A DNA stretch of 64,000 nucleotides. Source: a virus. Taxonomy: Duplodnaviria; Heunggongvirae; Uroviricota; Caudoviricetes. Of this stretch, positions 24,001 through 27,000 are shown in pieces; within the stretch, counting starts at the first letter, position 1, and each line of letters begins with the position of its first letter. Position numbers: made by a program. The stretch lies in IMG/VR virus record IMGVR_UViG_2880366365_000011; one strand, given 5' to 3'.

Positions 24001-27000
24001 TGCTCATTGATAAACCTCATTACAGATTTAAGGGTGAACAAATCCCTGCCATTGCTGGCATTTTTAATCCGTTGGTATGGTGTTAATATGGCTGGAGGGT
24101 TATCCAGCCGGTGTTTCGTTATTCAGGTACAGCGATACTTTTTTTACCGGGAGGCATTCACCAGAAATTTTTTGCTCGTCTCTTGCCTGGAGGCAGGATT
24201 CTTTACTGGCATAAATTCCGGTAATCACATTCTGTGATTCACCCGTTATAAGAAAAACCGTCATCATCAGTGCAAATGCTGAAGTCATTGACGTTCTCCG
24301 AAAATACCAAGTTCAAGAAGAGCAATTCGGGAAAGTATGGAATTATCATTGAGCAGATAAGGCTCATATTTCCTCATGTTAATGGCATCTTCAGTAAACT
24401 CCCGGTTACTGAGCAGAACACCAATATCAAAACAACCTTCAGACGTATTAACGTTTGGTAATAACGTTTCCATTATCGCGTCCTCAACAATGAATTTTGT
24501 GATGCAGTGCCTGGTGCCTCCAGGTGACGTTAACCAGTTAACAATTAACGCCGGATACAGAGAATCCACCCATAACACTGTTTTTGGTTTTAACTGTTCC
24601 GCGTGCGCTTAGCCGCATTCACCGCATCACAAAATTCACTTTAAAAAGGGCGGCAGAGCAGCCACGGAGTAAAACTGATACCGCCAAACGTCACCAGAAA
24701 ATTGATAACAGAGGGCGTTGCAGCGGGGTTGTCACTTAAGCGTATGGTCAACCTGACAACCCGGTGTCCTCAATGGGGAAGGAATAACCCCGCCATACTT
24801 ACCGCCGCGCCATTTCGCGGAGTGCCACAACCGGAAGCGCACGTTCGAAGAAATCTAACGACAAGCCTTCTAAGGGAAAGAGCTTCGCCGTACGCTTTCG
24901 CGTTATGCACTGACTTTTCAGGGAAATATCCTTTCAGTAAACTGTCAGTACCGGATTCTTATCCGTGTCCGGCGCACGACCACACGTGACAGCGTGTTGG
25001 TCTCCATTTTTAACCCAGAACCTCAATGGAGGATAAAATGCCAAACAAAAAAAGAAATCCGCTTATTGAAAAACAGATTGAATGCCTGGTAAATCAACTC
25101 AGGCAATCAGGGTTATTAAAAACTCATTCAGAGTTGAGGCTCACAGAATCAGCATTCGACGATAAATTAAATAATGTCCTTTATAATGGCATTATTGATT
25201 TTAATCGTTCTGTTGGTCGCCGCGGCCCTGCTGGTGTTTCCTTATAATTACCAGTCAATCCAGAGTGGACCGTGTTCAGCGTAAATATAACTGTACACAT
25301 CCAGATTATATTTGTGGTCTGTTAAGAACAGGCCGCAAATACATGCCGAAGCTTCCAGTGCAGCGGCTCTGTTACTGAATAACCATGTAGCAACATTCCA
25401 GCGTTTTTCTGCATCCCAGTCTTTCTCAAGGCCTGATACCATGAAGAAACCGTTAGTGTTGCCATCAAATAATTCTGTTTCCAAATTTTTAAGCAATGCC
25501 TGATGGACTCTTGCCAGGTATTCCGCCGGAATTTCGCCACGAATTCTGATGAGATTGTCATAAACAAACATGTTCCCCGCATATGGCGATTTTTCTTTCT
25601 TGTTTTTTAAACCAGCATCATGAGCAAACTGATCAATTTCTTCTTCCGTTGGTTTCGTATTGATGTTTTGCGCTGTCGTTTCTGCAATTTTATTTGCCAC
25701 ACTCTCTGAGTCGTGTTTATTTATAGACGCACAGAAATACAATCCGGTAAACGCATCGCGCACATTACGAGCCATATTATCAGTGTCTTTTTTCGTTACC
25801 GATTCCAATTCAAGTTCGTTCAGACGATGACGAAGTGTGTGTGCTGCAATCTCCTGGATTGAAGGAGGTAAATCTTTAAATTCCATCGTCAACCTCATCA
25901 GTCAGTGTTTCTGGCTAACCAGCGACGCGCGCCAGCTTCAGTTTTAAACGTTTTGCTTTTGGTATACGTCATCGCGGTGAACGTACCGTCCTGGTTGGGG
26001 AACACGCCACATACCAGAGATTCGTTGTTGCCAAGATTGAGCGTATCCATGTTGACCTCATTTCCCCTTAACGCCGGGGTAGCGGAACAAAAACCTGCTG
26101 CATAGTTATTAAAGTTGAACCCTGCCGTCATGTTCTTACGCCTCGGGCTGGCTACTTAACCCCTGACCACTGCCTGGTAACTCGAAGTATTGCCCTGCAT
26201 TCTGTGGGGCGGGGTGAGGGAATGAATGAAGTTTAGAAAAACGAACATTTAAGGTCAATGTTTTTTTATCAAAACATTTTAAGCAGGCAGCTGTTACGCC
26301 ATCACTACGATGGCATACAGTTAATCAAATAGATGAGGTTGGTTAAATATCTTGTTGAATTTTAAAGCATACTCCCAATATGCAAGATAGATCATCCAGC
26401 ATAATTGAAGGGTAGCGAGGATTCGTGGGGACTAAAAGAATATCCGGCCCTTCTATCTCCAGTTTGCGAATGACAGGCGTTGTGGTCCCTTTGGGTAAGG
26501 CAAGGACAATATTTCCTGGTTGTACGATTCGATCGGGATCAACAAAAACTGTTGAACCATTTGGGATGGAAACTCCACCACCAGATGTCGACATACTGTC
26601 ACTCTCTAGAACAACAGCAAAGGTATTGGCCGGGATTTCTCCGACAAGCTGCACACAAGAGGTTATTGAGGAATTTTTCATATAATCACTCCAGCTTGCT
26701 GCCTGCTGAAGTGATAGTAGCGGAACCGTTTTTATCGGCGGTAAAGATAGATCAAGCGAATCACCTGTATTTAACTCTCCTCCATTAAGAAGCCAATTTT
26801 CGTTTACTTTCAATATCTTTGCCAGTGAACTTATGTAACGCGAGGACGGCGCTCCTCCACCGTTCATCCATTGACTTACGGAGCCTTTTGATGCGCCAGT
26901 GGCATTGACAAGGTCTTTGCCTTTCAAGTTTAGCGCATGCATACGTTGGGTTATGCGTTCAGATATTGTTTGCTTGTTCATGTTTTGATTTTAAAACACA

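Follow-up and report, generated by a model that had tools for sequence, protein, structure and literature searches.

Gene order and prophage context

Within the 64,000-nucleotide stretch of viral DNA that we analysed (the window), an operon on the minus strand begins with a YdfA-like gene (25898..26131) whose product matched DUF1391 in Pfam (102 bits), the family to which K-12 ydfA and ydaF also belong. It is followed by a 216-aa ORF (25248..25898, minus strand; phrog_2151, 490 bits; ECs_2211 in Sakai), which stands in the place of ydfB and ydfC and had no match in Pfam, and by a 69-aa ORF inside the operon on the opposite strand (25038..25247, plus strand; phrog_4274, 174 bits; ECs_2212 in Sakai). 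Beyond the dicF-dicB module lies a truncated ORF resembling RecE/exonuclease VIII (22763..24007, minus strand; Pfam Exonuc_VIII), which retains only the N-terminal ~400 aa (positions 1-402 of 883 in phrog_607) and is annotated as a pseudogene in both Sakai and TR01. The series ends with the C-terminal fragment of a tyrosine integrase (22230..22781, minus strand; positions 52-165 of 172 in the Pfam Phage_integrase profile), also an annotated pseudogene. The resulting order of ydfA-like gene, leader, dicF, spacer, dicB, ydfD-like gene, recE' and int' is that of Qin and of the complete phage Tritos.

When the 12 kb around the module were compared with prophage Sp11 of O157:H7 Sakai, four blocks aligned collinearly at 99.8-100% identity, the placement of one IS element being the exception, and a single mismatch was found over 21909-28258, which spans the module. 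An IS629/IS1203 element lies within the replication gene (28255-29569). All of the ORFs and RNA elements of the module were intact, and a 1-kb stretch was 100% identical in O157:H7, O26 and O121 strains among the matches listed. Sakai already carries annotation for the module genes, with the dicB ORF named as a cell division inhibition protein; several dicBF copies are held by the prophages of O157:H7 Sakai and EDL933 (PMC5069750), and O157:H7 produces four copies of DicF, which activates pchA (PMC7873438, PMC10448788, PMC9438474). Published work also deals with the part that these copies play in regulating EHEC virulence. Because of this annotation and these papers on the dicBF copies, four of them expressed in EHEC, the observation is already known: the locus is one of the previously described O157:H7 dicF-dicB copies, that of prophage Sp11, and the value of finding it here lies in its correct annotation.

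DicF, its leader and DicB

The DicF sRNA and its terminator U-tail occupy 24643..24700 on the minus strand, with the 53-nt sRNA itself at 24648-24700, as determined by Rfam search, K-12 alignment and terminator scan. Positions 24648-24699 matched the full length of the Rfam model RF00039 (1-52 of 52) at 75.0 bits (E 1e-14), relative to a gathering score of 48 bits, and 52 of 53 positions were the same as in K-12 dicF (NC_000913.3 1649382-1649434), the lone change being A to G at 24662, position 39 of DicF. The 3' intrinsic terminator consists of a hairpin at 24665-24650, which was also present in the MFE fold, followed by TTTTT in a U-run extending to 24643. Judged by its sequence, the copy in the module is a member of the DicF (Rfam RF00039) family. 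The segments of DicF predicted to pair with ftsZ are retained in the window allele, and the duplex predicted by RNAduplex with K-12 ftsZ (-80..+40) had an energy of -38.5 kcal/mol for the K-12 and window alleles alike. As the variant base is unpaired in this duplex and the energy is the same, an alteration of ftsZ pairing by the A-to-G change was ruled out.

A non-coding leader common to Qin lies 5' of DicF (24701..24978, minus strand) and was 90.3% identical to that of K-12, with a single difference in the 120 nt proximal to DicF. Its folding z-score was -2.9, the available homologues were more than 90% identical and therefore too alike for covariation, and no other Rfam family was found in it at E<=1. 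In K-12, an RNase III site in the leader yields a 190-nt DicF precursor and an RNase E site yields the DicF 5' end (PMC10448788), and processing by both enzymes and a 72-nt DicF species have been described (PMC10448788, PMC9438474). The leader and spacer regions that flank DicF in the window are 99% identical to those of K-12, where the processing sites were mapped.

The dicB allele (24285..24473, minus strand) encodes 62 aa from an ATG at 24473, preceded by the Shine-Dalgarno sequence GAGGA at 24485-24481. Its product matched Pfam PF05358 (125.5 bits, cutoff 27) and phrog_1251, each over positions 1-62 of 62, and was 63% identical to K-12 DicB (E 4e-24); PGAP names it cell division inhibition protein DicB (WP_000449175.1; ECs_2214 in Sakai). 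Membership of this ORF in the DicB family (PF05358) is clear from these profile and sequence matches. We ruled out a 97-aa ORF starting at GTG 24578 as the form of DicB, as it crosses the structured spacer, and both the Pfam family and K-12 DicB have exactly the length of the 62-aa ORF. A mosaic junction lies within the gene, with 88% DNA identity to K-12 over codons 1-33 and 54% over codons 34-63; the C-terminal 29 residues are only about 41% identical to those of K-12 DicB. The protein keeps its length and hydrophobic pattern, its gene is still coupled to ydfD, and the same allele occurs in E. albertii. The start of the YdfD-like ORF (24100..24288, minus strand; DUF1482, Pfam 56 bits; 45% identical to K-12 YdfD) overlaps the dicB stop codon (ATGA), as in K-12.

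These results bear out the first-pass annotation of DicF with its terminator at this site, the identity to K-12 dicF being 98% and not weak, and they sustain its description of a 62-aa DicB-like ORF. The arrangement that it gave fared less well: the ORF is not immediately downstream of DicF, as a 174-nt spacer lies between them, and the module is next to the integrase only in a loose sense, as the YdfD-like and truncated RecE-like ORFs intervene and what remains of the integrase is a fragment.

A structured RNA between dicF and dicB

The spacer between dicF and dicB was the best conserved portion of the module, above either gene, with 172 of its 174 nt the same as in K-12. We characterised a structured RNA of the STnc100/PasD family type within it (24487..24642, minus strand) using Rfam, RNAalifold with covariation, and a model built from leaders only. 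The fold has five helices that are backed by covariation in RNAalifold; they include a 21-bp closing helix, H1 (24640-24620 pairing with 24509-24489), H2 (24616-24601), H4 (24552-24526) and H5 (24524-24510), which has the form CCUGG-AGGCA-CCAGG. The end that RNase III gives to the 72-nt DicF species, as mapped in K-12, falls within H1.

The spacer matched STnc100 (RF02076) over its full length at 34.7 bits (E 6e-6), under the gathering score of 47, and other dicB/kil leaders scored 28-44 bits, also under it. A model made from the leaders alone nevertheless recovered bona fide STnc100 at 38730-38867 (E 8e-14), so that each class detects the other by covariance models in both directions. Both have a closing helix, the motif GGUGAAU and inner hairpins, and in both the closing helix is flanked directly by the invariant hairpin CCNGG-AGGCA-CCNGG. 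The dicB/kil leaders differ from STnc100/PasD in that their closing helix, at 21 bp, is longer and their H4 hairpin, with the loop UGUUAACUG, is distinctive; they also run into a Shine-Dalgarno sequence and start codon whose distance hardly varies, whereas STnc100/PasD RNAs end at their own terminator. Because of the reciprocal model search and the common covarying helices, we regard the spacer, on its sequence and predicted fold, as a relative of STnc100, and because it scores below the gathering score we do not file it as a member. In a genome motif scan, approximately 30 chance matches lacking the GGTGAAT context, in GC-rich actinobacteria and others, were dropped.

The same structured RNA lies ahead of kilR in Rac-type and Stx phages, and scored 157 bits in K-12 Rac (model R1). 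These Kil loci resemble the module in that a terminator-type sRNA (KilS in Rac) precedes the same structured leader and a small FtsZ-directed division inhibitor, followed by a small ORF and then recE. They differ in that the inhibitor is KilR, a 73-aa protein unrelated to DicB; that the sRNA is only DicF-like, scoring 35-41 bits, under the gathering score, and diverges in its 5' region; and that they lack the long leader found upstream in Qin-type loci. In other phages the dicB slot is filled by different small proteins, such as KilR or unrelated ORFs.

Conservation of the spacer at the DNA level, as a protein-binding site or recombination linker, is disfavoured because its helices contain many G-U pairs, which would read as A-C on the opposite strand, and because the sense strand scored 170 bits with the spacer model relative to 34 bits for the antisense strand. 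A DNA-level explanation may still apply to the GTTAAC-rich H4 segment.

We tentatively suggest, as a reading that has somewhat less than an even chance of being correct, that the spacer is an RNA of the STnc100/PasD superfamily in a three-part lambdoid early-left cassette, in which an RNase III cut in H1 couples toxin expression to RNA processing. The parts of such a cassette would be a terminator-sRNA, which is either DicF or KilS, followed by the structured RNA and then by a small ORF for a toxic product (dicB, kilR or others), and the cut would yield the 72-nt DicF, an STnc100-like core RNA and an inhibitor mRNA with a short leader. We found no link between DicF or KilS loci and STnc100/PasD in the literature searched, and the sole fresh point of this analysis is that the spacer belongs to a family of structured RNAs that is widespread in prophages. 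Its conservation, its sharing with kilR loci and its kinship with STnc100/PasD suggest a common RNA-processing element before prophage division inhibitors, and may indicate how an orphan sRNA family arose or functions. The window also carries a bona fide STnc100 copy, identified with Rfam at 38712-38884.

Repression and expected activity of the operon

Upstream of the operon, a CI-like repressor of 212 aa (26343..26981, minus strand; phrog_4, repressor) has an HTH and an S24 peptidase domain, with Pfam scores of 48.5 bits for Peptidase_S24 and 21.5 bits, slightly under the cutoff, for HTH_3. The catalytic Ser is present (SDSM). In an alignment of four sequences only, however, Ala-Ala stands in the repressor where LexA has A84-G85 and lambda CI has A111-G112, and Arg, with a Lys one residue on, stands at LexA K156 and lambda CI K192. 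Because these cleavage residues are non-canonical, SOS inducibility is not to be assumed, and it is possible, judging from this alignment, that the repressor does not respond to SOS; an S24-domain repressor of this kind bears on the question of what derepresses dicBF operons. Truncation of the repressor in Sakai and TR01, where 339 bp are annotated, was ruled out, as the 212-aa ORF is open and identical in Sakai and the 339-bp annotation there reflects start-codon choice only. A Cro-like regulator is divergent from the repressor (27073..27315, plus strand; Pfam P22_Cro, 57 bits; phrog_409, transcription regulation), is annotated as Cro/CI family in O157 TR01 and had no BLASTP similarity to DicC.

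A repeat search identified an OR-like operator region (26980..27043) in which the palindrome TGTTTT-N7-AAAACA occurs twice (26980-26998 and 27028-27043). The promoter scan identified a putative PL-like promoter, TTGACC-17-TAAACT (26230..26277, minus strand), and a palindrome at 26258-26277, a repeat in common with OR, abuts its -35 hexamer.

The module had been contrasted with Qin, in which ydfABC-dicF-dicB-ydfDE is under DicA/DicC, as lying under a CI/Cro-type immunity region. At the level of domains this holds: the repressor has an S24 domain and 212 aa, unlike the 135-aa, HTH-only DicA, and the Cro-like protein has a P22_Cro domain and shows no BLASTP relationship to DicC. Three points make the contrast less marked than implied, however: the repressor HTH is 37% identical to that of DicA and the gene layout is the same; sequenced phages carry the module together with many different types of immunity; and Ala-Ala and Arg stand in the repressor at the Ala-Gly cleavage site and catalytic Lys of LexA and lambda CI. 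In both prophages, cro is divergent and repressor, promoter and operon are co-directional; module order and orientation are the same from the ydfA-like gene through the integrase remnant, with dicB stop and ydfD start overlapping; and both are defective. DicF, the proximal leader and the spacer are close to identical in the two (52/53, ~99% and 172/174, respectively), whereas in Sp11 ydfB and ydfC are replaced by the 216-aa and opposite-strand 69-aa ORFs, the C-terminal half of DicB has diverged (63% identity overall) and YdfD is 45% identical.

In phage lambda, kil encodes a small inhibitor of host division in the repressor-controlled early-left PL operon, upstream of the recombination genes, a layout that the module resembles. 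Unlike lambda, the window operon encodes no N protein; to our knowledge lambda has no DicF-like sRNA, and we would expect no sequence relationship between kil and DicB.

Very probably, the region is where Sp11, a defective lambdoid prophage of O157:H7, has its early-left (PL-type) operon, with one of the known dicF-dicB copies of the strain. Observed for this reading were the motifs of operators and promoter and, for every part, its identity, its integrity and its synteny. Counting against it are the divergent C-terminus of DicB, a repressor that may not respond to SOS, the opposite-strand 69-aa gene inside the operon and the decay of the prophage. For expression, processing and activity we draw on homology and the literature. 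The CI-like repressor would silence the operon by binding the palindromic operators at OR and at the leftward promoter near 26230-26258. When repression is lifted, transcription would proceed via the ydfA-like gene and the 216-aa ORF into the structured leader, which RNase III and RNase E, by homology to K-12, would process to generate the DicF 5' end. Most transcripts are expected to end at the DicF intrinsic terminator, giving the 53-nt sRNA, which would pair with ftsZ mRNA where translation is initiated and with further mRNAs, among them pchA according to the literature on EHEC. Transcripts that read through would enter the 156-nt structured RNA, in which the 21-bp closing helix is the likely substrate of RNase III, and then dicB together with the ydfD-like gene coupled to it in translation; DicB, for its part, would bind MinC and prevent the Z ring from forming.

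A module that is inert, its sequence whole but its expression permanently off in a prophage that has decayed, so that the copy contributes nothing to the cell, would fit the truncation of recE and int, the IS element in the replication gene, the repressor's lack of a canonical Ala-Gly site and the alignment of its catalytic Lys with Arg, and also the tight repression and lack of mitomycin C induction of the homologous promoter in K-12 (PMC10448788). We consider this highly improbable, as every ORF and RNA element is intact, the 1-kb stretch is unchanged among the O157:H7, O26 and O121 matches listed, spontaneous activation of the promoter is seen in a fraction of K-12 cells (PMC10448788) and all four O157:H7 DicF copies are reported to be produced under microaerobic conditions (PMC10448788, PMC7873438). 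It is also doubtful that the DicB-like protein has diverged in function, acting other than via MinC/ZipA and serving mainly in phage exclusion or on another target. The mosaic junction, the divergent C-terminus and the filling of the slot by KilR or unrelated ORFs elsewhere would allow it, but the end-to-end Pfam and phrog_1251 matches, the retained length, hydrophobic pattern and ydfD coupling, and the presence of the same allele in E. albertii argue for conserved function. Division inhibition by K-12 DicB acts via MinC and is MinC- and ZipA-dependent, and its phage-exclusion phenotype itself also requires MinC (PMC6832061).

The role of the DicF hairpin might instead be primarily that of a terminator gating read-through into a toxic gene, with trans-acting sRNA function secondary. 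The kilR loci keep the hairpin and U-run while the single-stranded 5' part and loop differ, and both a terminated 1,146-nt and a read-through 1,608-nt transcript are present in K-12 (PMC10448788), consistent with gating. Such a role is compatible with, and does not exclude, that of an sRNA; as the predicted ftsZ-pairing segments are among the 52 retained nucleotides, and trans regulation by DicF has been demonstrated experimentally in K-12 and EHEC (PMC5069750, PMC7873438, PMC9438474), we consider it unlikely that termination is the primary role.

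The DicF-DicB module and its genomic setting

The first-pass annotation had read this part of the minus strand as a DicF sRNA with its terminator followed by a 62-aa DicB-like ORF, and both claims were borne out. An Rfam scan of the whole window returned a full-length DicF match at 24648-24699(-) (75.0 bits, gathering score 48, E 1e-14), and alignment with dicF of the K-12 prophage Qin gave identity at 52 of 53 positions rather than the weak identity that would have argued against the assignment, the sole difference being an A to G change at window position 24662. The intrinsic terminator was kept (GC-rich hairpin and U-run), and the predicted DicF-ftsZ duplex was the same for the K-12 and window alleles (-38.5 kcal/mol), the variant base being unpaired. 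The 62-aa ORF, which starts at ATG 24473, matched Pfam DicB end to end (125.5 bits, cutoff 27) and was 63% identical to K-12 DicB; Sakai annotates it as ECs_2214, 'cell division inhibition protein', and PGAP names it dicB.

Upstream on the same strand lie a CI-like repressor gene (26343-26981), a promoter-like site (26258-26230), a YdfA-like DUF1391 gene (25898-26131) and a 216-aa ORF (25248-25898). A 69-aa ORF (phrog_4274, ECs_2212; 25038-25247, plus strand) is then found on the opposite strand inside this operon, which runs leftward, and just upstream of the DicF leader, in the relative position that the oppositely oriented sieB holds in Rac. It is followed on the minus strand by a 278-nt non-coding leader, DicF, a 174-nt spacer, dicB, a YdfD-like DUF1482 ORF (24100-24288) with its start overlapping the dicB stop, the N-terminal half of a RecE-like exonuclease gene (22763-24007) and a C-terminal integrase fragment (22230-22781). 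The earlier placement of the module "next to the integrase" was thus loose, as the YdfD-like ORF and RecE-like half intervene and the integrase is a fragment. The same layout is found in Qin and in Tritos, a complete temperate phage with an annotated dicF and intact recE, xis and int; the prophage carrying the module here is defective.

A 1-kb stretch of the module had 100% identity with numerous EHEC chromosomes (O157:H7, O26, O121); of 5426 complete E. coli genomes, 4733 contained relatives of it, the median being two places per genome. Around the module, 12 kb matched O157:H7 Sakai where prophages Sp11 and Sp12 adjoin each other (99.8-100% identity), with one mismatch in total across 21909-28258. 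The exception was one IS629/IS1203 copy, located here in a replication gene (28255-29569) and elsewhere in Sakai. This IS3-family element, on the plus strand, interrupts the O-like, DnaT-like gene and holds an Rfam ALIL frameshift pseudoknot (28594-28710); the Sakai copy lies between an IS256 remnant and a dinI-like gene, and O157:H7 TR01 has none at the replication-gene site.

Balasubramanian et al. named CP-933O, M and P as dicBF prophages and described O as a fusion of two prophages (PMC5069750); Sp11/Sp12 probably corresponds to CP-933O. For EHEC, reviews and later papers report four DicF copies, which are expressed, activate pchA and repress stx2A (PMC7873438; PMC10448788; PMC9438474). 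DicB works via MinC and, in addition, prevents phage entry that depends on ManYZ (PMC6832061). The 2016 paper reported no dicBF among about 2,000 phage genomes (PMC5069750); we found it in 93 records of the current phage collection, including Tritos, mEp460 and PPompW/Stx2a-converting phages. What was recognised here, correctly, is a locus already known, annotated and published; the observation is confirmed and the interpretation supported, with corrections to detail.

Operon control and conservation of the module

The repressor has 212 aa, with HTH and Peptidase_S24 domains. The immunity region had been described as CI/Cro-type, unlike the DicA/DicC region of Qin, and this contrast held at the domain level, as DicA has the HTH only. 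It is qualified by a DicA-like HTH (37% identity) and by a topology of the region that is the same in Qin. The domain-level contrast touches a known question, since DicA lacks an Ala-Gly bond and dicBp is not switched on by mitomycin C (PMC10448788). Alignment with LexA and lambda CI placed Ala-Ala of the repressor opposite the scissile Ala-Gly and Arg opposite the catalytic Lys, with a Lys one residue later, and the Ser nucleophile was kept; on this alignment, cleavage in the SOS response should not be taken for granted. Annotation in RefSeq and Sakai covers the C-terminal 112-113 aa only, although the full 212-aa reading frame is open and has the identical sequence in Sakai.

Two copies of the palindrome TGTTTT-N7-AAAACA stand between the genes for the repressor and Cro (26980-26998 and 27028-27043), and a third (26258-26277) directly adjoins the leftward promoter-like site at its -35 hexamer. 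As the palindrome is common to both places, the repressor probably controls the operon. In the account with the best support, transcription of this PL-type operon would then lead to release of DicF through RNase E/III processing and intrinsic termination, while read-through would yield the structured spacer for processing by RNase III and allow dicB and the coupled ydfD-like gene to be translated; DicF would lower FtsZ synthesis and DicB would redirect MinC. The analysis itself establishes sequence identity, integrity, synteny, operator motifs and RNA structure, and for this copy we infer expression, processing and protein activity from homology and the literature.

Identity to K-12 was 46% in the far upstream block, 90% in the upstream leader (one difference in its last 120 nt), 98.1% in DicF, 98.9% (172/174) in the spacer, where conservation within the module is highest, 88% in dicB codons 1-33 and 54% in codons 34-63. 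The conserved unit is therefore RNA-centred and ends inside dicB.

Three other readings, to which we give low confidence, are each partly compatible with a repressor-controlled operon yielding DicF and DicB. The module, in its defective prophage yet with DicF and dicB whole, could be a silent remnant; the DicB allele, with its dissimilar second half and full-length Pfam match, may have diverged in function; or the DicF hairpin, retained together with the predicted ftsZ duplex, might serve mainly as a terminator.

The dicF-dicB spacer as a structured RNA

The spacer with the first dicB codons gave a full-length Rfam STnc100 match below threshold (34.7 bits versus 47, E 6e-6), and the Rfam scan also found a bona fide STnc100 at 38712-38884(+). 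RNAalifold analysis of 14 non-redundant leaders predicted five helices, including a 21-bp closing helix, for the spacer at 24487-24642(-). Among these leaders 97.3% of all cells were paired, against 34-44% with partners slid, and fifteen pairs carried double changes, against 1-5 with partners slid; 0 of 500 shuffles reached the observed values. A covariance model built from the leaders alone detected the window STnc100 (54 bits, E about 8e-14) and >100 further STnc100-type elements elsewhere (35-98 bits), and gave only 34 bits for the leader's antisense strand. We read the spacer as a divergent relative of STnc100/PasD, which is not filed as an STnc100 member because it falls short of the Rfam gathering score. 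Neither DicF nor dicB is mentioned in the PasD/STnc100 preprint.

An independent cross-check comes from K-12, where RNase III yields a 72-nt DicF species (PMC9438474), whose end would map to window position 24629, within the 5' arm of the closing helix (24640-24620); the 3' arm (24509-24489) stops 4 nt short of the dicB SD (24485-24481). In our reading the closing helix is the probable RNase III site parting DicF from dicB mRNA.

Related leaders at kilR and other loci

The same sequence blocks were found in Rac-type and Stx phages, where they followed a DicF-like terminator hairpin and stood directly before kilR rather than dicB; every such locus gave the same sub-threshold STnc100 match. In K-12 Rac (L132, 1748-2003), the hairpin is the annotated sRNA KilS (Rfam DicF, 39 bits), and the structured leader occupies exactly the interval from KilS to kilR; the paper on KilS makes no mention of DicF. 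With KilS hairpin, same leader and kilR, the cassette of sRNA, leader and division inhibitor is therefore common to Qin-type and Rac/Stx-type phages (L132 and the Kil loci L006, L007, L008 and L009). Of all these results, only the STnc100-like leader that dicB loci have in common with kilR loci merits follow-up by a specialist.

A hairpin-motif scan covering one genome per species returned about 110 enterobacterial elements, including intermediates before unrelated small ORFs at a near-fixed distance (+33 to +42 nt). Tandem arrays of 3-5 STnc100-type elements were seen in some Enterobacterales (loci L083, L087, L097, L105, L106 and L059; Superficieibacter, Pantoea and others), and at L105 and L119 such elements stood directly upstream of a tRNA-like sequence, the last hairpin abutting the closing helix, then ...GGCACCA. 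Two phage records assigned to non-enterobacterial hosts hold E. coli-like sequence: Aeromonas phage AP1 (MT713136.1) carries dicF and the spacer (98.8% identity), and Actinobacillus phage pPE4 (PP818812.1) an 81.7%-identical match over a Rac-like early-left region with a DicA-type repressor, ydaT, Kil and exonuclease VIII, suggesting contamination, misassignment or recent transfer.

Elsewhere in the window, we observed a hok/sok-type antitoxin RNA at 33222-33396(+) (Rfam sok, 113.5 bits) and a pair of phage tRNA genes at 37690-37762(+) and 37866-37939(+). The window STnc100 lies between these tRNA genes and a 616-aa ORF (39021-40871), and is followed by a terminator-like hairpin of its own near 38905-38937.
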